Shown one piece after another: positions 4,085 to 42,446 of a DNA stretch of 42,446 nt (position 1 is its first letter; the number at the start of each line of letters is the position of its first letter). The position numbers and the translations under genes were made by a program. This DNA comes from a virus, in IMG/VR virus record IMGVR_UViG_3300045988_059300. One strand, written 5' to 3'. The notes under the pieces were generated by a model that ran no database searches, was not told where the DNA came from, and saw only the letters and a list, made by a program, of their open reading frames with translations.

Positions 4085-4410
4085 ACAGCAAACAGAAGGG
4101 CAAGCGTGGTGAGCTGGAATGGGCCAGCTATTGCCGTGGGCAGGGCTATGACTGCCGCCGCACGGCTCAGTATTGCGGGAACACCGGGGACGCCTCTGAC
4201 GTTGTAGGGCTGCCCGGCATCCATCAGGAAGTCAAGCGTGTGGAGCGGCTGGATTTGGAGGCAGCTATGGCCCAGGCAAAGCATGATGCGCCTCCTTGGG
4301 AATATCCCATTGTAGCCCACCGGCGGAGCCGCTGCGAATGGCTGGTAACAATGCGGGCGGAGGACTGGTTTTCCCTGTACAGGGAATGGGAGGCAAGTCA
4401 TGACAACTAA
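4081..4410 (+). CDS. Hjc-like PD-(D/E)XK Holliday-junction resolvase
   Basis: KGKRGELEW..GDASDVV..HQEVK (E, D, E-x-K) in a 109-aa protein. Confidence 0.6.
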   Translation: MNSKQKGKRGELEWASYCRGQGYDCRRTAQYCGNTGDASDVVGLPGIHQEVKRVERLDLEAAMAQAKHDAPPWEYPIVAHRRSRCEWLVTMRAEDWFSLYREWEASHDN

Positions 4411-4723
4411 GAAGCTGCAAACCATTCTGGAGATGGTGGACCGGGGATACCTCCAGAAGGACATTGCCAAAGCGGTCAATGTGTCCGTTTCGACCGTCAG
4501 CATCTGGGCCCGGAAATATGGGCGTGTGCGGATACCGCGTCGCTACTGCCTGAAGATGTACACCATCTACGGCAAGGACGGGCAATACGCCTTTGAGGGC
4601 ACCGCCCGAGAGTGTGCGGAATATCTGGGCATCCGATACCAGTCCTTCCGGCGGATGGCGTCCCAATACCAGCGTTATGGCAAGGGCCGGTATGCAGTGT
4701 ATCCGTCGGAGGTGGAAGCATGA
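4400..4723 (+). CDS. HTH DNA-binding protein
   Basis: YLQKDIAKAVNVSVSTVSIWARKYG. Confidence 0.6.
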   Translation: MTTKKLQTILEMVDRGYLQKDIAKAVNVSVSTVSIWARKYGRVRIPRRYCLKMYTIYGKDGQYAFEGTARECAEYLGIRYQSFRRMASQYQRYGKGRYAVYPSEVEA

Positions 4724-4750
4724 GAGCTGCCCGCTGGAAAGGAAGAGAGC

Positions 4751-5032
4751 ATGATGGATGATACAAAGCGCGCCTTGCTGGGCGACCACGAGGCAGCCAA
4801 GCGGCTGACGGATGCGGGGGTGCTGGTGCCGTGCCCTGGATGCGGTAGCGACAATATCGTGGATTGGTACAGACACAATGAGGTCTGGTATCAGTGCGAT
4901 GATTGCGGCTGGCAAGGCCCAAGCGTTTACTGTGAAGGATTTCAGGATACAGAGCAAGCCCGCCTGGAATGGAACACCCGCGCACCGATTCTGAGCGCGG
5001 AGGGGATGGAGATGCTGGAGGGGATGGAATGA
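4751..5032 (+). CDS. Lar-family (restriction-alleviation-like) zinc-ribbon protein
   Basis: CPGCGS..WYQCDDCGWQG...EQARLEWNTRA pattern. Confidence 0.6.
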   Translation: MMDDTKRALLGDHEAAKRLTDAGVLVPCPGCGSDNIVDWYRHNEVWYQCDDCGWQGPSVYCEGFQDTEQARLEWNTRAPILSAEGMEMLEGME

Positions 5033-5280
5033 AGAACCCGGGAGAATATGTTGACATTGGGGACCCAGCCTTGCAAGTCAGAACAGACGAGGATGGAAAC
5101 ACCGTGGCCTCTGCAACGATACAGGCGGTTGTCCTCTGGAAAGAAGATATCGAAAACTACATCATGGACGAGATCATCAAGATGTGCAAGGAGCACGGAA
5201 TTACGGACCTGTATGTGCTGAACCGGGATTTCATCCTGTCAGCCATCAGGGAGAAGATGGAAAGGGAGGCCCAACTATGA
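5029..5280 (+). CDS. Hypothetical protein
   Basis: ATGA coupling at both ends. 83 aa. Confidence 0.6.
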   Translation: MKNPGEYVDIGDPALQVRTDEDGNTVASATIQAVVLWKEDIENYIMDEIIKMCKEHGITDLYVLNRDFILSAIREKMEREAQL

Positions 5281-5663
5281 AGCTGGAAGAAGCAATCGCA
5301 AAAGCTAAAATTTTGAATGATAGCCTTAAAGAACTGGCCGATGAATACGAGGGTCAAGGTTCGTTTATGGCGGCTGGTATGGCTGTGACGTTCAAGCTTG
5401 TATTGGACACTATCCTCTCCGCCCTCCGCCCCGTCAGTAAGGAGCAGGTGGAGAAGGTGTTTCCGGGGTGTCCTTATTGCAAGCCAGATTCTGAGGGATA
5501 TGTGCAAAAATTTGGGGCATACAGCATCCTGAACGGGGAATTGAAAACAGGGCACTGTAAGCCACAGAAAATCAGTTTTTGCCCGCATTGTTCCCGCCCG
5601 CTGACGGACGAGGCCGTGGAGATGGTGATGAAAAGGATGGAGGTCCTGAACGATGCGGATTGA
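5277..5663 (+). CDS. Hypothetical Cys-containing protein
   Basis: ATGA coupling. CPYC...CPHC. Confidence 0.6.
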   Translation: MKLEEAIAKAKILNDSLKELADEYEGQGSFMAAGMAVTFKLVLDTILSALRPVSKEQVEKVFPGCPYCKPDSEGYVQKFGAYSILNGELKTGHCKPQKISFCPHCSRPLTDEAVEMVMKRMEVLNDAD

Positions 5664-5895
5664 GCGCAGAAGGTATGTAGTTATGCGAAGGAACCGAACT
5701 GAGGTTTGGTGTGGGCTTTCCAAACATTTCAGTTTCCGCCCGATTACTGAAGTGAAAGATGTTTCTGTCAAGACATATCGCTCCGAAGCACAAGCCAGAA
5801 GCGGCTGTTCTTCATGGGACAGAGATTTTGAGGTTGTTCCGGTAATCGAGATGATTGCGACTGAGGAGGCGCTGAACGATGGCAAGGGCGATTGA
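5653..5895 (+). CDS. Hypothetical protein
   Basis: In the operon frame chain. 80 aa. Confidence 0.55.
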   Translation: MRIERRRYVVMRRNRTEVWCGLSKHFSFRPITEVKDVSVKTYRSEAQARSGCSSWDRDFEVVPVIEMIATEEALNDGKGD

Positions 5896-6220
5896 CGGAG
5901 ACGCACTTAAAAGATGGTGCGAAAAGATAATTGACCAAGCGTGCCATCCAGCAACCGTGCAGATCGGGGAGGTATTTCTGGACAAGGTGCGCTCTATGCC
6001 CACCCTCACCCTGCCGAACGAGCCGCTGACGCCGAAGCAACTGAGGGAGATGAACGAGCCTGTATGGTGCTCCTGCAAACCGATTGAAGGCGGAAACGGG
6101 TATTGGTGTTTGTGCCGGTATGGGAAAATTGTCACCCCATCAGGAAATATTTTTGACGTGGACAAAATTCCGCATTGGATGTTTTACCGCCGCCCGCCGG
6201 AAGGAGAAGCTGATGCTTGA
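5879..6220 (+). CDS. Hypothetical protein
   Basis: 113 aa with overlapping starts and stops. Confidence 0.6.
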   Translation: MARAIDGDALKRWCEKIIDQACHPATVQIGEVFLDKVRSMPTLTLPNEPLTPKQLREMNEPVWCSCKPIEGGNGYWCLCRYGKIVTPSGNIFDVDKIPHWMFYRRPPEGEADA

Positions 6221-6686
6221 GGTATGCCCTATCACACTTAAAGAGGCCAATGCCTTTGTAGAGCAGCACCACCGCCACCACAAGCCGGCCACGGGGCATA
6301 AATTCTCCATTGGCTGTACTGATGGCGAGAAAATCGTGGGAGTTGCAATTGTAGGCCGTCCAGTGAGCCGATATTTGGACGACGGGTGGACGCTGGAGGT
6401 CAACCGTCTCTGTACCGATGGAACACATAACGCTTGCAGTATGCTCTATGCCGCAGCTTGGCGGGCAGCCCGGGCGATGGGCTACCACAAACTGATTACC
6501 TATATACTGGACAGCGAGAGCGGGACAAGCCTTAAAGCCGCCGGGTGGAAATGCGTGGGACAGGCCGGAGGTCTGCGTTGGACAGGAAAGCGCAGGCCGG
6601 AGGTAGATTTATGCCCGGCGCAGATGAAAATCAAATTTGAGATTGATGACGGGAAGCGCCCGCCGGAGGGAGAGGAGGACGCATGA
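6213..6686 (+). CDS. GNAT-like XF1762-type family protein (function unknown)
   Basis: ATG 6213 follows GGAGAAG. ITLKEANAFVEQHHRHHKP..KFSIG..VGVAIVGRPVSRYLDDGWTLEVNRLCTDG..NACSMLYAAAWRAARAMGY..LITY..ESGTSLKAAGW. Confidence 0.6.
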   Translation: MLEVCPITLKEANAFVEQHHRHHKPATGHKFSIGCTDGEKIVGVAIVGRPVSRYLDDGWTLEVNRLCTDGTHNACSMLYAAAWRAARAMGYHKLITYILDSESGTSLKAAGWKCVGQAGGLRWTGKRRPEVDLCPAQMKIKFEIDDGKRPPEGEEDA

Positions 6687-6982
6687 AACCGACTTGTATT
6701 ACTTGCAAAGCTGATTGCCATAACGCCGGGACAACCTCCAAAATTGTGGATTGCTCACAGTACAAACCGGGGCGAGTTTTGACCAACGCAGACCGCATCC
6801 GGGCCATGAGCGACGAGGAGTTGGCGAGCATTTTCCTCAGAGCCGACTTTTGTAAGTGTTGTGAGCATGAAAAAGGCGGAGTATGCAATTTCATCTGTGC
6901 TTATCCAAACATTCCGATTTATGAAGGGTGCAAACAGGCAGCATTGGCGTGGATGAAGCAGCCAGTGGAGGTGGACACCTGA
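6683..6982 (+). CDS. Cys-rich hypothetical protein
   Basis: ATGA coupling. CITCKADC..CKCCEHE..C. Confidence 0.6.
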   Translation: MKPTCITCKADCHNAGTTSKIVDCSQYKPGRVLTNADRIRAMSDEELASIFLRADFCKCCEHEKGGVCNFICAYPNIPIYEGCKQAALAWMKQPVEVDT

Positions 6983-7173
6983 TGGACTACGAAAAGCTTG
7001 TGGCTGAATTAAGAGATTGGTTGCCACCAGAAGATGGCGTACAGATTAACGGAGATGGAGAGATTACATATCCGATTTGGTGCGGTCATTTGACACCTGG
7101 AGATTTTGGCAAGACCGTCTTTTTGACCCGTGAGGAGGCCGAGGCCGCACTACGGAGGGAGCAGGATGGTTGA
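6982..7173 (+). CDS. Hypothetical protein
   Basis: The ATG shares an A with the upstream TGA. 63 aa. Confidence 0.5.
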   Translation: MDYEKLVAELRDWLPPEDGVQINGDGEITYPIWCGHLTPGDFGKTVFLTREEAEAALRREQDG

Positions 7174-7549
7174 TTGGGCAGTCATAAAAAGACTTGGGGT
7201 ATGCTTCCCTGGGTGGTTCATCAACGACCAGGGGGAGTTTATCGCCCACCAAAAGGCAAACGTATATTTCAATATCAGCACTTGCGAGAGCGAGGTGGAT
7301 GTAAAATGCAAGGTATTGGAGTGGTTTTCCCGCGCGGCTTGTAAGTCCACGCCGTTCCGCCGTGCAGTGGACAATACGGCCCTTCATATTTTCTTCCTGA
7401 ATGGTATAAATCAATATCTTGACACTAGGTTCAGTGTGGAGGATATGCGAGAGATTTACACTTATCTCGGGAACGCTTGCAACCATAAAAAAACGATCCG
7501 ATTTATAGAGAGCGGCTATGATATAGCCATATTGGAGGGACAGGAATGA
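7166..7549 (+). CDS. Hypothetical protein
   Basis: 127 aa with an 8-nt overlap on the upstream gene. Confidence 0.6.
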   Translation: MVDWAVIKRLGVCFPGWFINDQGEFIAHQKANVYFNISTCESEVDVKCKVLEWFSRAACKSTPFRRAVDNTALHIFFLNGINQYLDTRFSVEDMREIYTYLGNACNHKKTIRFIESGYDIAILEGQE

Positions 7550-7893
7550 AGGAGTACATCGAGAGAGCGGTTGCTGTCAAGAAATTTGAGAACTATCGCC
7601 GTGATTGCGAAGAAGAAAACGACGAAAGAGCGGCACAGATTTTTGAGGATTGTATATCCGAGCTTATGGCTATCCCCGCCGCTGACGTTGCGGAGGTGAG
7701 GCACGGGAGATGGAATCCAGAAATCCATCATACATATATTCCAGTTGAATATGACCAGAATGGGGATCCTATTCTCCATGAATACACATCATTTCGTTGT
7801 AGCTTATGCGGAAGAGAGGAGCTAAAAGAAGAACCATATTGTCATTGTGGTGCCCGCATGGGCAAGGAGGCCGACCATGAAGTTTCGGAGTAA
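7546..7893 (+). CDS. Hypothetical protein with C-terminal zinc-ribbon
   Basis: RHGRW...CSLCG..CHCG. ATGA coupling. Confidence 0.6.
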   Translation: MKEYIERAVAVKKFENYRRDCEEENDERAAQIFEDCISELMAIPAADVAEVRHGRWNPEIHHTYIPVEYDQNGDPILHEYTSFRCSLCGREELKEEPYCHCGARMGKEADHEVSE

Positions 7894-8548
7894 GACGGGC
7901 GAAGTCGCACTTACCATTGAACAGGCATTAGAGCAGTTTTGCGATAGCAAAGAAGATTGCGACTATTGCGAGCTTCGGGAACCCGTGCAGCAATACGCAG
8001 GGACAAAGAGGCCGTGTCATGAATACGTAAGAGCCAACCCTCACGAAGCCGCTCGCCTGATGGGCTATGAGGTGGTGGAAGATGGAAATGTACTTACAAA
8101 AAATGATAGCAAAGGTGAAAGTTTGGAGGCCAACATGGACAAGCCGAGAATTTGCGAGGTGCTGGGGGTTGAGGTAGGAGAGGATGTTAAATATCGGCAT
8201 ACGGACGGAACAGAAGAAAATATTTGTGTTTGTGAGGGTGGGAGGATTATTATTTCTTCTCTTTCATGCAAATTGCCAACCGTTGCTGTACTTATAAATG
8301 CCATCAACCACCCTGACCGCATCATCCGCAAACCCCGCTTCACCCAGCAGGAGGTGGAGAGGGCAAAGGCGATCAAAGTTTTGCTCCCGGAGATCAATGC
8401 AATAAAATACGATGGTGCATGGACGCAGTGCCTGGAAATTGTAGACGGCACATATTTTCAGAGAGAAGTAATCACCAGACATCTGTTCCCGTCTGTTGAA
8501 AAGGGTCAGGTATATACCCTTGACGAGATCATCGGAGGTGCCCAATGA
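7877..8548 (+). CDS. Hypothetical protein
   Basis: ATG 7877 follows GGCAAGGAGG. 223 aa. Confidence 0.6.
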   Translation: MKFRSKTGEVALTIEQALEQFCDSKEDCDYCELREPVQQYAGTKRPCHEYVRANPHEAARLMGYEVVEDGNVLTKNDSKGESLEANMDKPRICEVLGVEVGEDVKYRHTDGTEENICVCEGGRIIISSLSCKLPTVAVLINAINHPDRIIRKPRFTQQEVERAKAIKVLLPEINAIKYDGAWTQCLEIVDGTYFQREVITRHLFPSVEKGQVYTLDEIIGGAQ

Positions 8549-8940
8549 GAGAAATCCTTTTCAAAGCCAAGCGGCTGGATAATGGCGAATGGATTTCCGG
8601 AAGCTTGGTATGCTTTGCAGGCGGTGCCCGCGCAATCTTGCCCAGTGATAGCAAAACATTATTTTCAAAAAGCAAAGGCTTTATTTGCTGCGATACCTGT
8701 CATGATGTTGACCCCTCCACGGTCTGCCAGTACACCGGTCTGACCGACAAGAACGGGAAGAAGATTTTTGAGGGGGACAACGTCTATGACCCGCGCGAGA
8801 ACTCAATATACACAGTAGAGTGGAACGAAAATAATGCGATTTTCCAGATGGCACATGACTGGCGCAGAAGGAGCGTGGAGACGGCATACTACTGTGAGAT
8901 CATCGGCAACATCTACGACGGGGAGGGCGACAATGATTAA
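8545..8940 (+). CDS. YopX-family protein
   Basis: ILFKAKRLDNGEW..QYTGLTDKNGKKIFEGD..EIIGNIYD. Confidence 0.8.
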   Translation: MREILFKAKRLDNGEWISGSLVCFAGGARAILPSDSKTLFSKSKGFICCDTCHDVDPSTVCQYTGLTDKNGKKIFEGDNVYDPRENSIYTVEWNENNAIFQMAHDWRRRSVETAYYCEIIGNIYDGEGDND

Positions 8941-9154
8941 ACTGAAAAACTGCCCGCATTGCGGCGGAGAAGTAATGCTCTGTAAACTGAATACTATGGT
9001 TTCTGTTGCAGAGTTTTCTATTGTCTGCACAGAGTGCGGCTTGGAAACCAGAATCTATGTAAATCCCATGGCAAACTGTTGCTTTGACATGGGCGAGGCG
9101 GTCAGGATAATTACCGAAAAATGGAACAGGCGCGACGGGGAGGGCGGTGATTGA
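8933..9154 (+). CDS. Lar-family zinc-ribbon protein (second copy)
   Basis: LKNCPHCGGE..IVCTECGLET..EAVRIITEKWNRR. Confidence 0.6.
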   Translation: MIKLKNCPHCGGEVMLCKLNTMVSVAEFSIVCTECGLETRIYVNPMANCCFDMGEAVRIITEKWNRRDGEGGD

Positions 9155-9368
9155 GATGCCGAAGATGGAGCCGCAGGCATTTATCAAAATACTTCACAGC
9201 ACAAAGACAGGACGGTATGGAATGACCTTAAAGGAACTCTTCGTCATTGCCGACCATGCCGAGGACTGGTCAGATACGGCGTTCCTCGCCTTTAACTACG
9301 GCTTTCTGAAAGGCCAGCGCAGCATCAAAAACACCATGAAAAAGAAATCTATGGAGGTATCACAATGA
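9147..9368 (+). CDS. Hypothetical protein
   Basis: Start at GTG 9147 or ATG 9156. 70-73 aa. Confidence 0.5.
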   Translation: MIEMPKMEPQAFIKILHSTKTGRYGMTLKELFVIADHAEDWSDTAFLAFNYGFLKGQRSIKNTMKKKSMEVSQ

Positions 9369-10078
9369 ACGAACTGAGAGTTTTTAATTTCAATGACGCA
9401 GAAGTGGTCGACAGCCGGGATGTGGCTGAGATGACAAACGTTCGCCACGCTGATTTGATCGAAAAAATCACCGGGTACATGAAGCATTTAGCCAACGGAA
9501 ATTTCCGTTCGCTGGACTTCTTCATCCCGAACACTTACAAGGACGCCCAGGACAAGCCCCGCCCCTGCTATCTACTGACTAAGAAGGGCTGCGACATGGT
9601 GGCGAACAAGATGACCGGAGAAAAGGGCGTCCTGTTCACTGCTGCCTACGTCTCCGCCTTTGAGAAGATGCGGGAACATATCCAAGGCGGCAAAACAAAG
9701 CGGCCGGGAATGACCGACTACCAGATGGAGAGCATCCGCGTCCGCAAGGCCCAGCTTTTGGAGCGTCTGGCGAAGGAGTATGACGGTACTTACAGACAGG
9801 TTCTCCAGGCCCACGCTACCAAGGAGCTGACTGGGGAATACCTGCTCCCCCTGCCCTATATCGGGGAAAAGACGTACTCAGCACAGGAGATCGGCGAAAA
9901 ACTGGGCATCTCCGCAAACAAGGTCGGGATGCTCGCCAACCGGAACCACCTGAAAACGAAGCAGTACGGGACATGGGTCAATGACGTTGCCAAGAACTGC
10001 CCCGGAAAGGAAGTCCCGTCCTTCCGATACTACGAAAGCGTTGTTCCGGTTCTGAAAACGATCATCTCCAAACAGTGA
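9365..10078 (+). CDS. Rha-family phage regulatory protein
   Basis: N-terminal ELRVFNFNDAEVVDSRDVAEMTNVRHADLIEKI (pRha-type). Last gene of the + block. Confidence 0.8.
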   Translation: MNELRVFNFNDAEVVDSRDVAEMTNVRHADLIEKITGYMKHLANGNFRSLDFFIPNTYKDAQDKPRPCYLLTKKGCDMVANKMTGEKGVLFTAAYVSAFEKMREHIQGGKTKRPGMTDYQMESIRVRKAQLLERLAKEYDGTYRQVLQAHATKELTGEYLLPLPYIGEKTYSAQEIGEKLGISANKVGMLANRNHLKTKQYGTWVNDVAKNCPGKEVPSFRYYESVVPVLKTIISKQ

Positions 10079-19544: not shown

Positions 19545-19623
19545 TGAAATCAGGAGGCCGCAAGGAGGGCGGCGACGTGTACCAGCCCTTGTCCCTTACG
19601 TCCTCCATGCTTAAATTTTCTCA

Positions 19624-25567: not shown

Positions 25568-27304
25568 TCAGGCCCCCCTTTCCTGCGGAACTTCTCCCGT
25601 CTGGTTGATAACCCGCTGCAACGCCCCATATCCGGCGCCGCCCCGCAGCGGTGGATTTTCCTGCCCGGCAGGCGCGGGGCCTCCCCCATTCCCGGAGTTG
25701 CCGCCTGCGCCGCCCATCGCCATTGCCATCTGCCGCTGCTGGTCTGCCTGTAATACCGCAATCAACGTCTCCCGGTCTGTGATCTGACCGGCAGGCAGGC
25801 GCTTCAAATACTCCACTGTGGAAATCTTGCCCTGCATCAGCAAATTGTCCAGCGTCTGCATAGAGGCGATTTCGGACCAGTAAGAGGATGCTCCCACATC
25901 CAGGTCCACGGTAAAGTAGTAGTCCTTCAGGCTGGAAAAATCGAACGGAGCTAAGACCTTCCCATTAGACCCCGGCATGGTGAACATCACACGGTTGCCA
26001 CCTAGAGCTGTCTGGTCAACAGGAATCTCCACGTAGCGGTCCCCGTAATACTCGCCCATAAACTCCATGTAAATCCTGCCCTGGTCTTCAATGGCCTGCA
26101 GCAGCGTTTGCTTTGTCAGCTCCATAGGAGTCGCCGCCGCCCGCTGCAGGGCAATGATAGCGGAGGTGTTGTCGGGCCGTGTATCGCCAAGGGCCACGTC
26201 GGAAGCGCCCAGAAACCGCTGGGTGTAGGAGATTGCCAAGTCAATGAATTGGCTGATCTGCGGAGAGATGGTGGCCGGGTCGATGATTTTCGCCACATTC
26301 TCCACGCTGCCGTTGACGGCGATGGCCGCGCCCACCCGGTTGCTCCACTTGGCGACCTTCGTCTTGTCGAAGATGATCTTGGGATATGCCAGCATCATCA
26401 GAGAGATCATGGACATGGCAAACAGTTTGTTTACGAAAATCTGGTTCGGAATGAGCCCTGTAATCATGGCCTGCCCATGGTAGCAGTCCTGTACAAAGTC
26501 CCAGGACATCCAGGAGATGGGATACAGCTTGATTCCAAGGTCCCATTCGGGCTTGATCTCTTGATTCTGCGTGCATTCATAACCATGGATGGTTCCGCTC
26601 TCGTCATCCCGCCACAGCCGCAGCAGAACCGTAACTTTATTTCCGCCCAGCTCGTCCATGCGGCTATCCCCGCTCTGCTTGCTGTCAGCAGTGATGCTGT
26701 CCGCATCATCCTCCCTGACGCCGTTTGCGATTGCCCGCTTCTTGGCCTCAGAAACCAGCATCCGGCGTTCAATCATGATATAGGGCTGACTCTGAACGTC
26801 TCGGCTGTTGGGGTTTCCAAACAGCACCTGTGTGTTCATCAAAACTTCCGTTTTGATTGCGCCCTTGCTTGGCTGCCCTGTCTCTACATCAGGGTCCCAA
26901 TAGGTGTACAAGCAGCCGTCCCCATCCACCGCGGCGTTCCTGGCAAACTCGCGGATACAGGCCCCCATTTTGTTGAACTCGAAAATAGACTGGAATTGGT
27001 CATTCAAGAGGTCTGTCAAAATCTCTGCATCCTGACCTGTCAGTTTTCCGTTGGAGGGCAGCGGTTTTGCGTGGAGCTTCAGGTTGTCTGTAGACACATT
27101 CGCCACGGAAAACAAAACGACACGTTTCAGGAAATTGAAAACAGGAGTAGGCAGGCCATTGCTATGTACTCCCTCCCACTGCTTGCCAATGAAAAAGTTC
27201 TCATTGACATTCACGCAGTCATACAGCTGAATTCCCTGATTAAACTGGACCCCAGCCTGATACTCCGCAGACACCTTCTGAGGTGTCGGATCAAACTTCT
27301 TCAT
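25568..27304 (-). CDS. Portal protein (578 aa)
   Basis: AAGGAG RBS. NENFFIGKQWEG..GLPTPVFNFLKRV. Gly-rich C-terminus. Size and position fit a portal. Confidence 0.75.
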   Translation of the reverse strand: MKKFDPTPQKVSAEYQAGVQFNQGIQLYDCVNVNENFFIGKQWEGVHSNGLPTPVFNFLKRVVLFSVANVSTDNLKLHAKPLPSNGKLTGQDAEILTDLLNDQFQSIFEFNKMGACIREFARNAAVDGDGCLYTYWDPDVETGQPSKGAIKTEVLMNTQVLFGNPNSRDVQSQPYIMIERRMLVSEAKKRAIANGVREDDADSITADSKQSGDSRMDELGGNKVTVLLRLWRDDESGTIHGYECTQNQEIKPEWDLGIKLYPISWMSWDFVQDCYHGQAMITGLIPNQIFVNKLFAMSMISLMMLAYPKIIFDKTKVAKWSNRVGAAIAVNGSVENVAKIIDPATISPQISQFIDLAISYTQRFLGASDVALGDTRPDNTSAIIALQRAAATPMELTKQTLLQAIEDQGRIYMEFMGEYYGDRYVEIPVDQTALGGNRVMFTMPGSNGKVLAPFDFSSLKDYYFTVDLDVGASSYWSEIASMQTLDNLLMQGKISTVEYLKRLPAGQITDRETLIAVLQADQQRQMAMAMGGAGGNSGNGGGPAPAGQENPPLRGGAGYGALQRVINQTGEVPQERGA

Positions 27305-29157: not shown

Positions 29158-30561
29158 TCAGTCACCCCCTCCATAGGTCAGATAATCGTCTGTCATTTCT
29201 CCGCCGGTCATCTCGTCGTCGTAGTCCGTCATCCCGGCGCTATCGAAGTCCTCCACTTTCGGCGGTGCGGGCTTCTCCGCGCTCAGTGTCCGGGTAACAC
29301 AAAAATAACGGCAGGCATCGCAGATGTGGGTGATCTCATGGGGTTCCGTGGCACAGTCCGACGGGTTTTTGTCGTCGTGCTGGATGGCCGGAAGATTCGT
29401 GCAAAGCCCCTTGCAGTCCTGCGTCACCAGCAGGCCCGGCCGGTCCTTTTCGCTGTTCAGTGGTTTCAGCATCTCCTTGACTGCCATCCAGCCCTGCACA
29501 CGGTTGTTGCTGGCCCGAATGATGCCAACGCCATTTTCCATGAACAGCTCTGCCATGCTCTTTCCGCTGTCCTTCTGCCGGTTCCACATATCCGGCGGCG
29601 CCGCCGTAAACTCGATCTGCTCCCAAGACGGCGTCAGGTCCAGCATCAGCTTTGCCGCCTCGGATACAATGATGCCGCTCTTCTGTACCTCGCGATACAC
29701 ATAGCAGCGCCCATCGAAATCAACAGCAATCCAGAGGCAGGCAAACATATCCAGGCCATAGTCGAACGCCCGGTACTTCTTCCACTCCGCAGGAATCCTC
29801 CAGAACGGTTTGATAATATGAGTCTCCGCCCGGAACTCCGGGAAGAATGTTCCGGCCAGAGCGTCCCAATCGCCATACCGCCAGGCCGCGCGCACATCAT
29901 CCGGCAGCAAGTCCAGCATCTGCACATACTCTGGGGACGCCTCCAGCAGCTGGGGATTATCATCCACCGTGGCGTGAATGAAGGTATAGTCCTCTGCTTT
30001 TTCTCCGTTCTGATACTGGCGAGAGATAAACAGGCGTTTGACCCACATGTGCCCAACTCCGCCGGGGTTACAGGTCAGGTACATCCGGCGTGGAAACTTC
30101 GTAGCACCGCGCAGACAGGCGCCCAGTGTTCGGAACTGGTATTCCGTGAATTGTGTCGCCTCGTCCATGAAAATCCAGTCGTATTCCTGGCCCTGATATT
30201 CCACATCGTCCCCGCTGCTATAATGTCCGAACTTGATAACACTTCCGTTGGAGAAGAAAAACATGTGCATGGTGGCGTTATATGCTGCGATCTCTGCCGG
30301 AATCAGCTTCCGCATGGGCAGGATCATCGTCTGCTCCAGTTCCGGATATTCTTTTCGGACAATCAAAATCCGGATTCCCGGATAGGTCATCGCACCGCCA
30401 ATCGCTTTAATCCGCACAACATGGCTCTTTCCGCCGCCGCGGGCGCCGCCGTATCCAACATAGCGAGACCGCGCCTGACAGAACTGCTTCTGCTTTGGGT
30501 TCAAATCTCCCAGAGCCAGATTGACGGCTCCGCTGTTGTTTCGTGCTTTCTTGTTTGCCAT
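29158..30561 (-). CDS. terL: Terminase large subunit
   Basis: Walker A GGARGGGKS and Walker B WIFMDEAT, with a C-terminal nuclease-type region. ATG 30561 follows AAGGTGA. Confidence 0.9.
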   Translation of the reverse strand: MANKKARNNSGAVNLALGDLNPKQKQFCQARSRYVGYGGARGGGKSHVVRIKAIGGAMTYPGIRILIVRKEYPELEQTMILPMRKLIPAEIAAYNATMHMFFFSNGSVIKFGHYSSGDDVEYQGQEYDWIFMDEATQFTEYQFRTLGACLRGATKFPRRMYLTCNPGGVGHMWVKRLFISRQYQNGEKAEDYTFIHATVDDNPQLLEASPEYVQMLDLLPDDVRAAWRYGDWDALAGTFFPEFRAETHIIKPFWRIPAEWKKYRAFDYGLDMFACLWIAVDFDGRCYVYREVQKSGIIVSEAAKLMLDLTPSWEQIEFTAAPPDMWNRQKDSGKSMAELFMENGVGIIRASNNRVQGWMAVKEMLKPLNSEKDRPGLLVTQDCKGLCTNLPAIQHDDKNPSDCATEPHEITHICDACRYFCVTRTLSAEKPAPPKVEDFDSAGMTDYDDEMTGGEMTDDYLTYGGGD

Positions 30562-30591
30562 GCGCTCACCTTTCAGGGAATGACTAGGGGA

Positions 30592-30615
30592 ATAGGCCCC
30601 CTTGCGGGGGCCTAT
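30592..30615 (-). terminator. Strong stem-loop directly after the major capsid gene
   Basis: ataggccccc-ttgc-gggggcctat, a 10-bp stem. No clean U-tract. Confidence 0.5.
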
Positions 30616-30620
30616 ATTGC

Positions 30621-31676
30621 TTACTCGTATGCCTTGTCGGCTTCCATGCCGCAGCAGCCGTCCTTGATCTGGATGCACCGCATAACTTGGCCGGAAGTCA
30701 GCGTCACGCCGCTGGAGGGATAGGTCTCAGCAGTAGAGCTGTACCGGGGGTTGGTCCCGTCCACCGTGTACTTGTACACATTGCTGCCCGGTTCGGAAAT
30801 CGTGACTTTGTGCGCAGAGATGGACAGTGTGGGAGCCGACAGAACAGCCGCGTTACTGCCGCACACTGCAACGCCGTCGCCCTTGGTTGCCAGGATGAAG
30901 CTGTCGTAGTAGGTGACGCCCTGCACCACAGGACCGGCATAGCCCTGTACCTTGGGCAGCACGTCATACTGCTGCAGCTTTACGGGGTCCACACTGGATC
31001 CCTTGTACTTGATTAGGAAGTACACGCCGGAGGGCAGATAGCTCTTGGGAATGGTGACGACTTTCGTTCCGTCCACTTCACCCACAACGCCTTTTGCCAG
31101 CGCCTTGGTGCCCAGGCCCTCCAGATTGATGAAGTCCGGGTTCTGCTTCAGCAGCTTGTAATACTCCGTGGGGATATACAGTGTCCGGTTCTCCACCGGG
31201 ACAAAGGCGTCCGTCATCTGGGCGTTGACATCGATGATGTACTCCACAATGGTGCTCTTGGTAGGCGCTGCGGAGGGCTGATACTGGATGTTGGCGCCCT
31301 CACACCACTTTCTCAGCCGGTACTTATCCATGTTGGGGATAGTGACCTCGTCCAGCTGACGCCGCAGGGACTTTCCCGCTGACTTCTCGATGGCCTGATC
31401 GCTGTTATCCAGAGGCTCAATGACAAATGTAAAGGCAGGCGCCTTGTTCATCGTCATCTCCTGGATCGTGTCGCCCAGGTTCTTCGGGGTGCCAAACCGG
31501 TTGCCATCTGCAGTCCGGTTATAATCGGTCTCCGGCACAGTATCCACGGAGTAGACACGGATGGTCTTGGCTCCTACAAAGGAATATTCGTGGCCCGCGG
31601 CGGAGTCCGTGATGGATGCCTTGTGAAATCTCTCTGCGATTTTGTCTGCGTATTTGACTGTGTAATTAACTGCCAT
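30621..31676 (-). CDS. Major capsid protein with C-terminal Ig-like/CHB_HEX_C-like module
   Basis: Immediately follows the scaffold gene. C-terminal PTLSISAHKVTISEPGSNVYKYTVDGTNPRYSSTAETYPSSGVTLTSGQVMRCIQIKDG. Confidence 0.75.
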   Translation of the reverse strand: MAVNYTVKYADKIAERFHKASITDSAAGHEYSFVGAKTIRVYSVDTVPETDYNRTADGNRFGTPKNLGDTIQEMTMNKAPAFTFVIEPLDNSDQAIEKSAGKSLRRQLDEVTIPNMDKYRLRKWCEGANIQYQPSAAPTKSTIVEYIIDVNAQMTDAFVPVENRTLYIPTEYYKLLKQNPDFINLEGLGTKALAKGVVGEVDGTKVVTIPKSYLPSGVYFLIKYKGSSVDPVKLQQYDVLPKVQGYAGPVVQGVTYYDSFILATKGDGVAVCGSNAAVLSAPTLSISAHKVTISEPGSNVYKYTVDGTNPRYSSTAETYPSSGVTLTSGQVMRCIQIKDGCCGMEADKAYE

Positions 31677-33425: not shown

Positions 33426-33664
33426 TACAGACCTCCTACATCAAAGCCATCTTTGCCATTGACTGAAAATGTCATCAGGTTTTGGATGCCCTCGTCGATC
33501 TCCTTGGACCGGCGCTGCTCGTCCCTGTCATCTTCTGCCTGCGGGTCCGGATTCTTCTTCGCCGCCGCTTCCTGCCGCTCCCCTCCATTTGTGAAGGAGC
33601 CGACCTTTACCCCGGTCAGGGCAACCACAGCACCAAACAGGAAACACGCCAAATACTCCATCAT
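33425..33664 (-). CDS. Small membrane protein (79 aa)
   Basis: N-terminal TM YLACFLFGAVVALTGV. ATGA coupling to terS. Confidence 0.6.
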   Translation of the reverse strand: MMEYLACFLFGAVVALTGVKVGSFTNGGERQEAAAKKNPDPQAEDDRDEQRRSKEIDEGIQNLMTFSVNGKDGFDVGGL

Positions 33665-34086
33665 GCGAAATCACTCGCCTCCATGTTCTTTCCCATCTGG
33701 ACACTGACTTTCACTTCTGCATTGGCTTCCACCTTGTCCTGATATCCGCCGTACCGCTTCTGTTTCAGCGCAAAGATCGGCATCGGGGCTTTCGGATTCC
33801 GGTACGCCATCTGAACAGCAGCGGCGGACATCCGCATGTAGGCCATCTGGATTGTCTCCTGCAGGTATTCGCAGCGGCGGCCATTGTACCAGTTATCCAG
33901 CGTCATGAGTGAAACACCCAAGTACACGCCAAGAGAAAATTCCTCGGGGACATCGCCGCGCTCCTCACACTCTGCAAAGTAAGCGTCCAGCTTTTCCTGC
34001 AGTTCCTCCGCAGTTGCATATTTTGCCCCCGCTCCCGTCCGCTTCTCCGCTTCCGGCTCCCCAGCCGCTTTTTTCGCTCTCGGCAT
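33661..34086 (-). CDS. terS: Terminase small subunit
   Basis: TAEELQEKLDAYFAECEERGDVPEEFSLGVYLGVSLMTLDNW pattern. First gene of the late block. Confidence 0.65.
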   Translation of the reverse strand: MPRAKKAAGEPEAEKRTGAGAKYATAEELQEKLDAYFAECEERGDVPEEFSLGVYLGVSLMTLDNWYNGRRCEYLQETIQMAYMRMSAAAVQMAYRNPKAPMPIFALKQKRYGGYQDKVEANAEVKVSVQMGKNMEASDFA

Positions 34087-34420
34087 GTCCTCACCGCCTT
34101 GTATCAAAATCGCCCCACCGCTGCTCTCTCCACGTAGGAACGCAGCCGTCAACACAAGCGGTAGGGCAACCGCACCGCATATCGGCTTCGATTGCGAAAC
34201 TCTGGTGCGGTCCCCCAGTTTCTAGTCCCCATTATAAGCCCCGCGGTCAGGGCAGGGCTGGAGGAACACCCTGCCCGCCGCAGGTGAGAAAAGAAGATGG
34301 TAGGCTTTCGCCTATCTATACTCTACCACAGATCGCTTCCAAATCGTTCAGCATATTTTATGCACCCCTGTTTTGTACCCGATAATAGTATTTTAAGGCC
34401 GGATTTCAGAACATATCCCA

Positions 34421-34514
34421 CCCGTTTTTCCGGTATCCCCCTGACCTGTAGAGAGTTGAGGGGATGTAGGAAATATAACCTATGCCGTTCCCAGCGAGGC
34501 CGCCCGTTTTTCCG
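34421..34514. repeat. Direct repeats CCCGTTTTTCCG (2 copies, 82 bp apart), with related TTTCCGAAT copies at 34711 and 34766
   Basis: Exact 12-mers at 34421-34432 and 34503-34514, each followed by nTAnCCC. Confidence 0.8.
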
Positions 34515-34895
34515 CTACCCCTCCCCCCTTGTTATCCATCATCTACAGCCCCGGCCGCATGCCCCCAGGCCAGCCACGCCCACGCAGGCCGCGGGTCGGA
34601 GCCATGATGCACACGCAGCCAGGGCGGCCAACCGACACAAAAATTACACAGAAAACCACAAAACCATTGCAAACACTAGATTTGCGTTTAACAAACAGTT
34701 AATTCCCATTTTTCCGAATTACTCCTTGTTATTTCTTTGCCAATTTAGTTCAATTTTTTTAAGTATTTCCGAATGGCTCTTTCTTGTACTTTCTTTCACA
34801 GAACAGATTTGCCCTCTTCCCATTCTTTTTGTATTCCCTCTGCGCTGGCTGGACAGACAAAGCAAAAGCGCCACCAGCAGGAGCCAGCGGCGCAA

Positions 34896-35002
34896 GGGGT
34901 CTGTTAAGGGGGGTTATATTCTTTCTTGTTTCTTTGGGGGGATTATAGGGGGGATAGAGATAAGGGGTTTAAGGGGAAAAGGGAAAGGGGGGAACAAGGG
35001 GG
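34896..35002 (+). repeat. Array of nine G-runs (3-6 G) on the + strand, which is a C-rich, G-poor tract on the - strand
   Basis: aagggg..aagggggg..gggggg attata gggggg..gggg..gggg..ggg..gggggg..ggggg. Confidence 0.9.
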
Positions 35003-35034
35003 CGTTTCTTTGTTCTTTCCTGGGAATCGGCCGG

Positions 35035-35238
35035 TTAAATCTTGTCTTTAATGGCGTCAATGATCCAGGCGTTGACGCTTTGGCCTGCGCGCCTAGCTGC
35101 ATCTTCCAGCTGTTCCGGTGTGAAACCGTCTCCGCCGTCCTGTCTGACTCTGATTGTGTACCTCCTGTATGTCTTTGCCTCGTACCTCTCCCGCGCCGGT
35201 CTATTTTGTGCATTGCGGATGCTCTTATCTGTAGGCAC
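35035..35238 (-). CDS. Ribbon-helix-helix DNA-binding protein (67 aa)
   Basis: GTG 35238 lies 5 nt after AAAGGAGGTG. YTIRVRQDG..FTPEQLEDAARRAGQSVNAWIIDAIKDKI. Confidence 0.65.
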   Translation of the reverse strand: MPTDKSIRNAQNRPARERYEAKTYRRYTIRVRQDGGDGFTPEQLEDAARRAGQSVNAWIIDAIKDKI

Positions 35239-35275
35239 GTTAGCACCTCCTTTGCTGGATAGTATACTATATAAT

Positions 35276-35296
35276 TGCATAACGCGCCATTATGCA
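35276..35296. promoter_or_regulatory. Operator-like palindrome O1 (TGCATAA-N7-TTATGCA)
   Basis: Lies between a TTGCAT and a TATATA on the - strand, upstream of the RHH gene. Confidence 0.5.
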
Positions 35297-35349
35297 AACC
35301 GCACAAAAATCAGCCCGGAATGTTGTATATCATTTTGCTGTATGCTCTA

Positions 35350-35378
35350 TTGACATGCGCATAACGCCGCGTTATGAT
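35350..35378 (+). promoter_or_regulatory. Promoter TTGACA-17-TATGAT with operator-like palindrome O2 (CATAAC-gccgc-GTTATG) in the spacer
   Basis: -35 at 35350-35355, -10 at 35373-35378, palindrome at 35360-35376. Confidence 0.6.
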
Positions 35379-36984: not shown

Positions 36985-37185
36985 ATGAAACAGATCAGCA
37001 TTAACAACGGCGCAACCTACACCACGGCCGCCGAGGCGCTGGAGGAAATCAGCCTTGACACTATGGCTGAGTACATGGATGACGACGCCCGCGAGGCCGT
37101 GCATAACGAGCTTGCGCCCTGCTCCGATATTGAGTTTTTGGAGCGGTATCTTGAGATTGCACCTGATGACCTGATTGTAGGATAA
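36985..37185 (+). CDS. Small highly acidic protein (66 aa)
   Basis: GAAAGGA RBS. D/E-rich EALEEISLDTMAEYMDDDAREAV. Confidence 0.6.
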   Translation: MKQISINNGATYTTAAEALEEISLDTMAEYMDDDAREAVHNELAPCSDIEFLERYLEIAPDDLIVG

Positions 37186-37223: not shown

Positions 37224-37286
37224 ATGTCTTTCAAGCAAAGAAAAGCCGGGGCTTTTTCGCCCTGGCCTCTCTAATTTCACATCATG

Positions 37287-37527
37287 TTCACAGTAACAAC
37301 ACAGAACCATTGAATTTCTAATCAAAACAGATACAAAAGTCTTAAATCTTCAAATCTTTGTTTTCCCTATGTAATTCCAGCCTTTTCCTTGCAGCTCTAA
37401 GGTTTTGCAGGCTCTCTTTATATTACATTTTGTGACGTAAAATTACCATCTAAATTCACAGTAAATTCACAGTAAACCCGCAATTTCCGGCCTTTATGTT
37501 CACAGTGGAAAACTATGTGGAAAACTA
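37287..37527. repeat. attP-region repeats: TTCACAGT x4 plus two tandem duplications
   Basis: TTCACAGT at 37287, 37455, 37466 and 37499. Tandem aaattcacagt x2 and gtggaaaactat x2, directly 3' of int. Confidence 0.6.
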
Positions 37528-38613
37528 TCCCTCCCTGGCGTCCATGTAAGCTCCCAGCAGCTGGGCCGCGGTTGCCTTGTGCTGCTGCCGCAGATGGGTG
37601 TATACACTCTCAAGAACCTCCGGCGTGTCTCCCAGTATCTCCGCAGCCTGCCGGGGGTCAAGCCCCGCCTCATAACAGATCGTGGCGAAGCTGTGGCGGA
37701 AACAGTGGGGTGTGATGGGGAATGTCTCGTGTGTCGCACCATCGCTTGTCTGAATGATCTCATTCAAGCCCACATCCCGGCAGTATTTCCGCCAGTTCCT
37801 TGTGATCTCTCCGGCCCGCATATATCCGCCATCGGCGCCGGGGAAGATCAGTCCCACCCGGTTCCTGGGCAGGGCGTCCGCCAGCGGCGCCAGCAGCGGA
37901 ATCTTCCGGTTTCCGTTCTCGCTCTTCAGGTGGTCCTCCAGCTTCGGAAACTGCCCCATTGCATAGCTGAGCTTTTTGGTCACATGGATGACCCCGGCTT
38001 TCCGGTCAATATCCGCATAGGTCAGCGCCAGGGCTTCTCCCCGCCGCATCCCGGTATAAAGCAGCAGATACGGGAACAGCCACCAGTGGGCTTTTTTCTC
38101 CCGCCCCGCTGCCTTTACGGCGGCCTCCTGCTCTTCGGTCAGTGCCTCCCGGTGCTTCACCGGCAGCCCCCGGCTCTTCTTGATCTCCGCGGCCGGGGAA
38201 ATATCAATATCTCCGGAGATCACCGCATGGGCGAATATCATCTTGCAGACACACAATTCAATAGAAACGCTGTTGGCGCTCCTGCCCTGCTTCTCGAACG
38301 CGGAGATATACCGCTGGATATCCAGGGGCCGTATCTCCTTCGCAGGTCCGGGGAATGCCTCTTTCAGACGCTTCACGGCATAGGAGTATACCCGCCGCGT
38401 GGATTCTCCAATATCCCCTTCGTGCTGCACCTCCCACTCGTCCGCGATCTTTGGGAAGTCGCGCCCACGCTCTTTCTGCTCCTGGTATTCCAGGATTTTT
38501 CTGTCCACCTCGCGGCAGCTCTTTCCCCGGAATGCCACCCGCTTTCCGTTGATGGTCCGGATCGCCTCGAAGAGCCCGTCCGGCCTCTGATGATACTTGC
38601 TTTTCTTCGCCAT
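37525..38613 (-). CDS. int: Tyrosine-type site-specific integrase
   Basis: N-terminal SAM-like region. TGMRRGEALAL, HCFRHSFAT, LGDTPEVLESVYTH (R..H-x-x-R..Y). Confidence 0.9.
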   Translation of the reverse strand: MAKKSKYHQRPDGLFEAIRTINGKRVAFRGKSCREVDRKILEYQEQKERGRDFPKIADEWEVQHEGDIGESTRRVYSYAVKRLKEAFPGPAKEIRPLDIQRYISAFEKQGRSANSVSIELCVCKMIFAHAVISGDIDISPAAEIKKSRGLPVKHREALTEEQEAAVKAAGREKKAHWWLFPYLLLYTGMRRGEALALTYADIDRKAGVIHVTKKLSYAMGQFPKLEDHLKSENGNRKIPLLAPLADALPRNRVGLIFPGADGGYMRAGEITRNWRKYCRDVGLNEIIQTSDGATHETFPITPHCFRHSFATICYEAGLDPRQAAEILGDTPEVLESVYTHLRQQHKATAAQLLGAYMDAREG

Positions 38614-39545: not shown

Positions 39546-40169
39546 TTATCTTACTAAGCTAATAAAGTGCGTTGCTTTTCCCAGTACATGAACTCTTGCC
39601 ATCTCTTCTCCCCAAAACACGAATGGCGTGCAAGTTGGGTTTTCTGGTTCTAACACGATTCGATCCTCAAACTTCCGAAATCTTTTCAAAGTAGCCTCTT
39701 CATTATCAACTCGAATGGCAGCGATCTCCCCATTCTCGACCTCATCTTGCTGTCGAATGCATACAATATCCCCATTGAAGATGCGAGCGTTTATCATGCT
39801 CTCTCCTTTGCAGATCAGTGTAAAATCACAGTGAATATACTCAGGCACTTCATCGTATCCCTCAATATTCCCATCAGCAAGTATCGGTTCTCCGCAAGCA
39901 ATCCGGCCTAACCGCGGGACCCTTCTTGTGTGCGGCATTGAATGGATGTTAGTTGGAAGGTCGTAATTCCCTTCCCACCCCATAAGATAAGCTGGAGGAA
40001 CATCTAATGCATCCGCAATCTTTTCCAGTTTGTCAAGTGGTATATTTGTGATAATTCCGTTTTCATACTTGAATATTGTCTGTTTTGTCGTTCCACAAAT
40101 TTCCCCAAGCTCAGTCTGAGAAATTCCTTTTTCTTTTCTCACTTTTGCAATTCTTTTTCCTATATTCAT
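39546..40169 (-). CDS. CI-type repressor (XRE HTH + S24 LexA-like peptidase)
   Basis: ISQTELGEICGTTKQTIFKYENG. GESM (Ser) and ATLKRF (Lys). AAGGGGTG RBS. Confidence 0.9.
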   Translation of the reverse strand: MNIGKRIAKVRKEKGISQTELGEICGTTKQTIFKYENGIITNIPLDKLEKIADALDVPPAYLMGWEGNYDLPTNIHSMPHTRRVPRLGRIACGEPILADGNIEGYDEVPEYIHCDFTLICKGESMINARIFNGDIVCIRQQDEVENGEIAAIRVDNEEATLKRFRKFEDRIVLEPENPTCTPFVFWGEEMARVHVLGKATHFISLVR

Positions 40170-40198
40170 TATCTCACACCCCTTCTTTTCGTAACTTA

Positions 40199-40226
40199 AT
40201 AATATCACATATTTTTGCAAAATCAA
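40199..40226 (-). promoter_or_regulatory. Repressor promoter candidate (TTGATT-16-TATTAT)
   Basis: Back-to-back with the cro-side promoter. Confidence 0.45.
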
Positions 40227-40238
40227 GCAAAAAATAAC

Positions 40239-40267
40239 TTGACAGGTCACTTTATCCGTTGTATTAT
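40239..40267 (+). promoter_or_regulatory. Early promoter (TTGACA-17-TATTAT)
   Basis: -35 at 40239-40244 and -10 at 40262-40267, 44 nt upstream of ATG 40311. Confidence 0.65.
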
Positions 40268-42069: not shown

Positions 42070-42446
42070 ATGGACGAACAAGAGTTGAAAAATATTTTGG
42101 ACAAGCACTTTAAATGGCTACGAGGCGAAAATGGCGGAAAACGGGCCAACCTGTCCAGGGCCGACCTGTCCAGGGCCGACCTGTCCGGGGCCGACCTGTC
42201 CGGGGCCAACCTGTCCAGGGCCAACCTGTTCGGGGCCAACCTGTCCAGGGCCGACCTGTCCAGGGCCAACCTGTCCGGGGCCAACCTGTCCAGGGCCAAC
42301 CTGTTCGGGGCCAACCTGTCCAGGGCCGACCTGTCCAGGGCCGACCTGTCCGGGGCCGACCTGTTCGGGGCCAACCTGTCCAGGGCCAACCTGTTCGGGG
42401 CCAACCTGTCCAGGGCCGACCTGTCCAGGGCCGACCTGTCCGGGGC
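42070..42446 (+). CDS. Pentapeptide-repeat protein, N-terminal part (continues at nt 73 of the window after removing the 72-nt overlap)
   Basis: AAGGAGG 8 nt upstream. [25 protein letters not shown], then 20 A[DN]L[SF][RG] units to the window edge. Confidence 0.9.
42145..42446 (+). repeat. 15-nt tandem coding repeat array (pentapeptide units)
   Basis: 20 consecutive units differ at only 3 variable positions (N/D, S/F, R/G codons). Confidence 0.95.

Follow-up and report, generated by a model that had tools for sequence, protein, structure and literature searches.

In phage HK022, the put element forms two stem-loops in the nascent RNA that make RNA polymerase resistant to terminators, and in Firmicutes phages activator-dependent late promoters are located upstream of terS, as with RinA in Staphylococcus aureus phages and Alt in TP901-1. 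Here, we compare these systems with a gap of 948 nt (34087-35034) in IMG/VR virus record IMGVR_UViG_3300045988_059300, a complete, temperate viral genome of ~42.4 kb (the whole stretch of 42,446 nucleotides was analysed and is called the window below). The gap extends from the stop codon of an RHH-like open reading frame (ORF) to the ATG of terS, the gene of the terminase small subunit. It stands at the head of one long late operon on the - strand, which runs from 34086 down to ~10110 (~24 kb) with terS first and the genes of the major head protein, TerL, the portal protein and a 1649-aa tail protein after it. On balance, we read the gap as a composite control region of this late operon, that is, of the packaging and head genes of a temperate phage of gut Clostridia, with cis-acting RNA modules in it. 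The modules of the gap are small and are exchanged horizontally; two of them, which we designate modules A and B, are hairpins directly upstream of terS and recur in other phages (Table 1).

By analogy, the gap would be a locus of a familiar kind, a phage late-operon control region in which a terminator, a promoter accompanied by repeats and a leader are combined. Comparison with the described systems revealed that (i) the gap shares with lambdoid late control (pR'-tR' with Q, and HK022 put) the layout of an upstream terminator, a promoter, here putative, and leader hairpins heading a very long late operon; (ii) unlike in the lambdoid systems, no Q-like or N-like gene was found in the window phage, and modules A and B, unlike put, also occur among tRNA-like elements in other phages; (iii) as with the RinA and Alt promoters, direct repeats lie by a candidate promoter whose -35 element is weak, and terS begins a few hundred bases farther downstream; and (iv) unlike in the RinA and Alt systems, there are only two repeats, and no RinA, ArpU or Alt homologue was detected in the window phage. 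The control of late genes and packaging is largely uncharted in phages of gut Clostridia, and the head of the late operon is built here from portable cis-modules.

Modules A and B in the predicted leader of terS

Most of the predicted structure of the gap lies next to terS. The 341-nt terS-proximal leader (34420-34080) had a fold z of -3.47, and its minimum-energy fold gave four hairpins, namely a GNRA hairpin, hairpin X, module A and module B. On the - strand, fold z was -2.6 to -2.8 for 34080-34359 and near 0 for 34360-34640. A sequence-only reading of the gap had suggested a long structured late-operon leader, which is supported for the ~280 nt nearest terS (34105-34380) and not for the remainder. 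The three - strand hairpins that it listed in the GC-rich part were all found, except that accgcacc/ggugcggu encloses 27 nt rather than 26 nt.

Module A consists of an outer stem, P1, closed by a loop, AGAGUUUCGCAAUCGAAGCCGAYAUGC, which itself contains an inner stem, UUUCG-CAAU-CGAAG. The 20-nt core of the loop was found in at least 59 IMG/VR contigs, and the 27-nt loop as a whole is nearly invariant: the core is fixed except for one C/U change in contig L002, in which the inner stem is still paired, and the 3' part of the loop, GAYAUGC, shows few substitutions and one 1-nt deletion. P1 occurs as CCGCACC/GGUGCGG, CUGCUCC/GGAGCAG and CUGCGCC/GGCGUG, the last with G-U pairs; it is paired in 97.9% of the alignment cells vs at most 51% in slid registers, and 2 of its pairs are altered on both sides. 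A covariance model of module A scored 72.9 bits on the - strand of the window vs 9.8 bits on the + strand and detected a single copy there, and when 83 loci and the window were searched with it for additional or more divergent copies, the known ones alone were returned. A micro-peptide read across module A (RVSQSKP(T/I)CG) was rejected, as it has no start codon in the window and no synonymous variation. Because this mini-ORF lacks synonymous variation and the changes in module A keep the pairing and not the amino acids, the constraint appears to act on the nucleotides.

Module B, which ends ~12 nt before the Shine-Dalgarno sequence of terS and ~24 nt before its ATG, is composed of an outer stem and an inner hairpin. 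Its core pattern was found in at least 37 IMG/VR contigs, and in Flavonifractor phage Castelnaud, a sequence with 86% identity to the module immediately precedes the HNH-terS genes. At least five versions of the outer stem exist (e.g., CCCUACCGCU/AGCGGUGGGG in the window vs CCCCUCCAAU/AUUGGCGGGG elsewhere), and one pair of the inner hairpin varies between G-U, A-U and G-C. Pairing extends to 98.1% of the cells vs at most 62% in slid registers, with one pair altered on both sides. The covariance model of module B scored 82.2 bits on the - strand vs 11.8 bits on the + strand, again with a single copy in the window. A function of module B as a sigma-70 promoter (TTGAC...) was rejected, for a usable -10 element is missing at the distance required. 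Since G-U pairs become A-C mismatches on the other strand and both models are strand-specific, the structures of modules A and B are those of the terS-sense strand. Relative to the flanking late genes, both modules are invariably sense-oriented.

Modules A and B are absent from Rfam 15, the collection of RNA families with which they were compared. They are two compact RNA-like motifs common to dozens of human-gut phage contigs and linked to arrays of tRNAs and tRNA-like elements. Outside the window lineage, they are found in long non-coding arrays that follow TerL or a small HTH gene and precede terS, portal or Bro-like genes.

Going beyond these structures and their distribution to the use of a promoter, the binding of a factor and an RNA function, we infer the following course of events. 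The RHH-like gene would be a separate transcription unit, whose C-rich tract and terminator would stop the transcript and insulate the late genes. Late transcription would start within the gap, either at the TTGCAA-18-TGTAAT block or, more likely, at the weak promoter by the direct repeats, which would bind an activator or a repressor. The nascent leader of ~280 nt would fold into the four hairpins named above, and a conserved trans factor of the host or the phage probably recognises the invariant loops of modules A and B. These modules would most likely control read-through by put-like or attenuator-like antitermination, or else how the 24-kb late transcript is processed or how stable it is. 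In related phages, they punctuate arrays of tRNAs and tRNA-like elements at the same genomic position. Should modules A and B serve in antitermination or processing, they would offer a handle on the timing of expression of the 24-kb late operon.

Several observations weigh against the gap being such a control region with RNA modules. Covariation is thin, with only three stem lineages in module A; some copies of module A carry one P1 mismatch, and a metagenome scan for new module A stems (VCC plus loop) returned only 11 copies of the window lineage. Most changes in module B are one-sided, largely from G-U to A-U or G-C, and its shuffle control was not significant, as 67 of 500 shuffles reached the observed score. 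Both promoter candidates are weak matches to the consensus (9/12), the promoter scan counted no more sites than shuffled sequence gave, and the GC-rich block of the gap is without a fold signal. In addition, the genome yielded no candidate for a binding protein, an antiterminator or a late activator.

Of the other two hairpins of the leader, the GNRA hairpin is invariant in the relatives, and an IMG/VR scan for its region returned the same lineage only; with the U/C-rich run CCAUCUUCUUUUCUC behind it, it is a candidate weak terminator or attenuator. Hairpin X has a counterpart in other phages in the form of a longer stem (CCCCCGGCAGGG...CCUGCCGGGGG). Its 11-nt loop is reversed in L008 and L006, which is a small inversion flanked by an 8-nt inverted repeat, and L002 recombines with another phage type exactly at its stem.

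Table 1. Features of the gap, its flanking genes and other genes of the window, with positions in the window.
Feature	Positions	Strand	Description
Portal protein	25568-27304	-	
TerL	29158-30678	-	
terS	33661-34086	-	Pfam GP3_package, E 2.6e-6; phrog_606 (terminase small subunit), E 1e-8; P22 gp3-like
Shine-Dalgarno sequence and terS ATG	34084-34098	-	GGUGAGG; start conserved in all relatives
Module B	34111-34166	-	Outer stem CCCUACCGCU/AGCGGUGGGG around UUGAC..., inner hairpin CUGCGU-UCCU-ACGUGG, AGAGAGC
Module A	34165-34216	-	Stem P1 ACCGCACC/GGUGCGGU (34169-34212), 27-nt loop
Hairpin X	34250-34276	-	GGGCAGGG / CCCUGCCC, 11-nt loop
GNRA hairpin with U/C-rich run	34287-34314	-	UAGGC-GAAA-GCCUA (34301-34314), then CCAUCUUCUUUUCUC
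Promoter-like boxes	34382-34414	-	TTCTGAAAT-N8-AAAATA and CTGAAA-16-TATTAT, beside proximal repeat
Repeat module	34415-34535	-	Two direct repeats (G)CGGAAAAACGGG(C/U)GG; diversity 0.007-0.024
GC-rich block	34536-34639	.	Two alleles in each of two sub-blocks; diversity 0.12-0.15
AT-rich promoter/operator-like block	34640-34800	-	TTGCAA, 18-nt spacer, TGTAAT; two palindromes
Hypervariable spacer, mosaic breakpoint zone	34801-34857	.	Diversity 0.37; indels
Putative intrinsic terminator of RHH-like gene	34858-34893	-	Hairpin GCGCCGCUGGC-UCCU-GCUGGUGGCGC, then UUUUGCUUUG
C-rich, G-poor unstructured tract	34894-35005	-	Directly 3' of RHH-like stop; eight runs of C4-C6
RHH-like ORF	35035-35280	-	81 aa; upstream of the gap
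Tyrosine integrase	37525-38613		
S24/HTH repressor (cI-like)	39546-40250		

Mosaic organization of the gap

The relatives compared comprised 11 IMG/VR contigs, one contig from a metagenome-assembled genome (MAG) and 11 metagenome contigs, with terS 96-100% identical and the gap 92-97% identical. Nucleotide diversity is uneven along the gap: it is 0.007-0.036 in 34301-34550, 0.07-0.15 in 34551-34800, 0.37 in 34801-34850 and 0.01-0.05 in 34851-35000, as compared with 0.00-0.04 in the terS coding sequence and 0.14-0.19 in the RHH-like coding sequence beside the last of these segments. Breakpoints or allele switches recur at 34105-34111, 34242-34250, 34531-34535, 34787-34799 and 34852, and 5 of the first 11 relative contigs end, switch or turn chimeric inside the gap. 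To judge from these alignments, the gap is a mosaic of several small control elements and not one element; that the region is made of exchangeable modules had been missed in the sequence-only reading. Even if modules A and B have no role in antitermination or processing, the locus serves as an annotated example of mosaic regulatory DNA and as a warning of assembly breaks and chimeras.

The same pattern bears on an alternative in which most of the gap is the remnant of a decayed array of tRNAs or tRNA-like elements together with recombination scars, and only the terminator and one promoter are functional. Related phages have long tRNA-like arrays at the equivalent place and the window has no tRNA, only 34109-34211 of the gap is common to the array phages, breakpoints are many, and the GC-rich block has two alleles and no fold signal. 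However, 34301-34550 and 34851-35000 are conserved like coding sequence while their neighbours vary, and the loops of modules A and B are invariant across phages with unrelated flanks. Uneven conservation and invariant loops argue for purifying selection, and we regard an origin of the gap as debris as rather doubtful.

No sign of a protein-coding gene, whether a conserved ORF, a family match or a codon-position substitution bias, was found in the gap, and the ORFs within it had no PHROGs or Pfam match at E ≤ 0.1 except noise. The earlier description of 34087-35034 as ORF-free is borne out; the long + strand ORF (321 aa, 249 codons within the gap), which it took for read-through, is cut to ~136-153 codons in every relative by run-length or homopolymer indels and allele swaps.

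ROOL and GOLLD often lie near tRNAs, and the related phages carry tRNAs nearby; the gap is also long, ORF-free and provided with several stable hairpins. A large non-coding RNA had been among the roles suggested, but a single structured RNA like ROOL, GOLLD or HEARO that takes up the whole gap is very unlikely. No Rfam family, including ROOL, GOLLD, HEARO, riboswitches and self-cleaving ribozymes, reached its gathering score in the gap; the proposed search for ROOL- and GOLLD-type RNAs matched nothing even at E ≤ 10, a cut-off at which only three chance-level Rfam matches of 15.9-19.6 bits appeared (gathering scores 40-80). Neither ARAGORN nor the Rfam tRNA model detected a tRNA or tRNA-like element in the gap. 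A strong predicted terminator lies inside, about half of the gap is without a fold signal, and the relatives break or swap at the five recurrent points, with modules exchanged independently of each other. Surveys of IMG/VR have yielded 10,006 candidate viral structured RNAs (PMC10690425). Like these candidates and like ROOL and GOLLD, modules A and B are conserved structured motifs in non-coding regions of gut phages, near tRNAs or tRNA-like elements in relatives; unlike ROOL and GOLLD (500-800 nt), they are hairpins of 52-56 nt with no covariance-model match.

The repeat module and the promoter-like boxes together form a nearly invariant block (34382-34535), whose sole variable patch is located between the boxes. 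The direct repeats are 22-mers at 34418-34439 and 34500-34521, 86% identical and 82 nt apart. Iterons had been reported here; they amount to only two copies of one 22-mer. The promoter scan gave the boxes near the proximal repeat at 9/12, which suggests a possible promoter. The distal edge of the module, 34531-34535, is a recurrent breakpoint: L006 ends at 34531, L225 starts at 34534, and L223 and L203 have junctions at 34531. L225 begins (1-46) with the sequence of an Illumina Nextera adapter (GTCTCGTGGGCTCGGAGATGTGTATAAGAGACAG), to which the phage sequence is joined at window position 34534. L203, a different phage with the early genes of the window, has the same repeat pair and TTCTRAAAT-N8-AAAATA boxes in front of a different, non-packaging gene, a 95-aa Bro-N-like ORF, and its distal junction is the same as that of L223. 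Such a portable module fits a transferable promoter or operator and poorly fits a pac site or an origin. An IMG/VR scan with the repeat core CGGAAAAACGGGYGG returned at least 120 matches, among which only the window relatives and L203 were informative; the other matches are single and apparently due to chance because the pattern is too short.

A pac site in the gap or in its terS-proximal part, at which TerS would attach to the repeats and to bent AT-rich DNA and so set the place of the first headful cut, was weighed against these data. As in the pac locus of SPP1 (pacL-pacC-pacR, upstream of and into terS), non-coding repeats and AT-rich stretches lie directly upstream of terS; in addition, 34301-34550 is co-conserved with the nearly invariant terS, and several contigs terminate inside the gap. 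By contrast with SPP1, the modules of the gap are not tied to terS, and terS itself is P22 gp3-like. In P22, whose gp3 is the namesake of this terS family, pac is located inside the terS gene, which weighs against the gap as pac. The contig ends are spread over five places that coincide with allele switches, and point to branches of the assembly graph. Furthermore, the repeat module precedes a non-packaging gene in L203, modules A and B also occur after TerL and before portal or Bro-like genes and with other packaging genes (the HNH-terS of Castelnaud), and L002 replaces 34105-34250 yet keeps the same terS. We therefore consider a pac site in the gap unlikely. Inside the 5' end of terS, a tandem 8-mer (TCCGCTTC x2 at 34038-34053; GAAGCGGA x2 on the terS strand) was observed, which is a candidate intragenic pac-type repeat.

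The two direct repeats and the AT-rich core could also be seen as the iterons and unwinding element of a replication origin, a role raised in the sequence-only reading, and no initiator or origin was identified elsewhere in the genome. An origin is highly improbable, however, given that (i) there are only two repeats, whereas iterons call for three or more; (ii) no Rep-type initiator gene is adjacent; (iii) DnaA boxes are not in excess (6 found vs 7.4 expected), and none is in the gap; (iv) there is no skew feature beyond gene orientation; and (v) the repeat module is portable and lies beside promoter-like boxes in L203.

Contig L009 consists of a Collinsella-like metA (L009 1-870) followed by phage sequence from ~34242, which would place an attP in the gap. 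This placement is exceedingly improbable. The join in L009 passes through GGGGGGGCGGGGGGG and falls within the 3' end of the host gene, and GGGG is all that the empty host site in L036 and the phage have in common at the junction; the short shared GGGG and the poly-G join indicate that L009 is probably a chimeric assembly, which would mislead the assignment of a host or an attachment site. At a distance of 3 kb, the integrase gene is accompanied by short repeats of its own and by a homology break, at 37239-37525, which is likely the attP region. Just downstream of the integrase gene, an 11-nt repeat (TAAATTCACAG x2.4, 37451-37476) and a homology break at 37239 were observed.

The distal half of the gap contains the variable blocks. 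Contig L002 is a recombinant between the alleles of the GC-rich block, and a compensatory structure in this block was rejected because it folds no better than shuffled sequence (z -1.0 to +1.0) and an allele recombinant exists. The AT-rich core noticed earlier is real, with a GC content of 0.375 over 34600-34799. In the AT-rich block, the hexamers TTGCAA (34667-34672) and TGTAAT (34643-34648) are kept among the relatives and the spacer between them varies, so that the block may be a promoter; its palindromes are GCAAA-N7-TTTGC (34669-34685) and TTAAC-N5-GTTAA (34688-34702), and 34640-34759 had a fold z of ~-2.4 to -2.7 on both strands. Homology breaks at 34787-34799 and 34852, around the hypervariable spacer, were found in L032, L231, L227, L222, L224 and L229.

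The 3' end of the RHH-like gene

The ~170 nt that follow the stop codon of the RHH-like gene make up its 3' end with its terminator, which the sequence-only reading had missed. The G-run array that it saw is real and is the + strand view of a C-rich, G-poor tract of 112 nt on the - strand (44% C, 5% G), a composition that is reached at only one other place in the genome. The 120-nt windows in 34880-35039 fold at only -4.9 to -8.2 kcal/mol (z ~+0.4 to +0.7), and fold z on the - strand is near 0 for the tract. The tract has the composition associated with Rho utilisation (at least ~80 nt of C-rich, G-poor, unstructured RNA) and is a possible Rho-loading (rut-like) site; alternatively, it could act at the DNA level via the G-runs of the opposite strand, or as a C-rich regulatory 3' untranslated region (UTR). 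A perfect 10-nt complementarity exists between 34993-35002 and 34524-34533 (CCCCCUUGUU / AACAAGGGGG on the - strand), the former within the C-rich tract and the latter, 459 nt farther downstream, at the G-rich edge of the repeat module. Chance could account for this match, or else long-range or trans pairing of the C-rich 3' UTR.

The tract is followed by a hairpin (34868-34893) of 11 pairs, 8 of which are G-C, and the U tract UUUUGCUUUG. This hairpin, located 141 nt past the RHH-like stop codon, has the features of an intrinsic terminator, and its predicted function rests on them; its window had a fold z of -3.07 on the - strand vs -0.13 on the + strand, and a G-to-A change in relatives turns a G-U pair into an A-U pair with the pairing kept. 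The arrangement as a whole, ~110 nt of C-rich, G-poor, unstructured sequence between a stop codon and a hairpin with a U tract, is like rut sites combined with intrinsic terminators. If the tract and the terminator end the RHH-like transcript as predicted, the late operon needs a promoter of its own.

The RHH label of the 81-aa ORF was not confirmed by family or solved-structure searches, in which the best matches were YlcI/YnfO-like (weak, E 0.003, below the cut-off) and phrog_13890. The ORF is divergent from a + strand operon that holds an AcrIC5-like gene (Pfam PF22147, E 2e-9) as its last gene, and two palindromes, CATAACG-N3-CGTTATG (35278-35376 and 36985-37185), lie on either side of the divergent promoter region that separates the RHH-like gene from this operon. 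The RHH-like protein could be an Aca-type repressor of the anti-CRISPR operon.

Arrays in related phages and genome context

The arrays of related phages hold true tRNAs, and their Rfam matches were only tRNA and gut-2. Three further elements were observed in them. First, a tRNA-Leu-like scaffold, which was uncalled by ARAGORN, is present in L057 (~2210-2385), L002 (~3820-3935) and L093 (~3790-3960; positions in the oriented arrays). It has the acceptor stem UGAGCGG/CCGCUCA, the D-arm GCGGAAUAGGUAGACGC and the T-arm UGAGGUGCAAAUCCUCA, and variable inserts of 60-130 nt in place of the anticodon and variable arms. Second, an atypical tRNA with the anticodon CCA (Trp) and an aberrant T-loop (GGGGGAACAGAACCUUCC) scored 52-55 bits with the Rfam tRNA model and was not called by ARAGORN; it is located at 1263-1333 in L058, 3653-3723 in L075, 8730-8800 (- strand) in L047 and 2468-2538 (- strand) in L083. 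Third, a motif of the form CCCGCU-GAAAACU-[variable stem-loop]-GUGACAAUCUA-AGCGGG was found in L031 (Castelnaud, ~4070-4135, - strand), L048, L093, L097 and L100; its internal loop is conserved, and its inner stem covaries (GCGCC/GGCGU, ACCUG/CAGGU, GCCGU/ACGGU). Module A is the apical part of this third motif in L093, and the third motif is absent from the window.

We tentatively raise the possibility that modules A and B, the third motif and the tRNA-Leu-like scaffolds are members of a so far undescribed class of modular RNA arrays in phages, in which a common factor of the host or the phage would recognise hairpins with invariant loops. Members of such a class would be put-like antiterminators of late operons, or else they would move together with variant tRNAs as RNA decoys or as signals for processing, and the window phage would be a minimal two-module version before terS.

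The early + strand genes of the window (~4265-10078) have counterparts of 80-100% identity in other phages, in which these immediately precede the non-coding arrays (compared with contigs L038, L042, L043, L054, L057, L067, L082 and L087). Because these early genes match those upstream of the arrays, the window lineage looks recombinant: it looks as if hairpin X and modules A and B were kept before terS and the tRNA-like parts were lost. The structural block appears to be inverted or recombined relative to phages with matching early genes.

A tyrosine integrase gene and an S24/HTH repressor gene identify the phage as temperate. The genome ends overlap by 72 nt within a 15-nt tandem repeat (GGGCCAACCTGTCCA, ~26 copies, 42143-42446 and 1-91) that extends across both ends; since the last 72 nt equal the first 72 nt, the assembly is circular or permuted and cut within this repeat. 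The MAG contig, L032, also terminates in GGGCCAACCTGTCCA. Within the structural gene block, a full-length match to RAGATH-31 RNA (Rfam RF03101) was found on the - strand at 19553-19606, with 80 bits vs a gathering score of 71.8 and an E of 3e-15.

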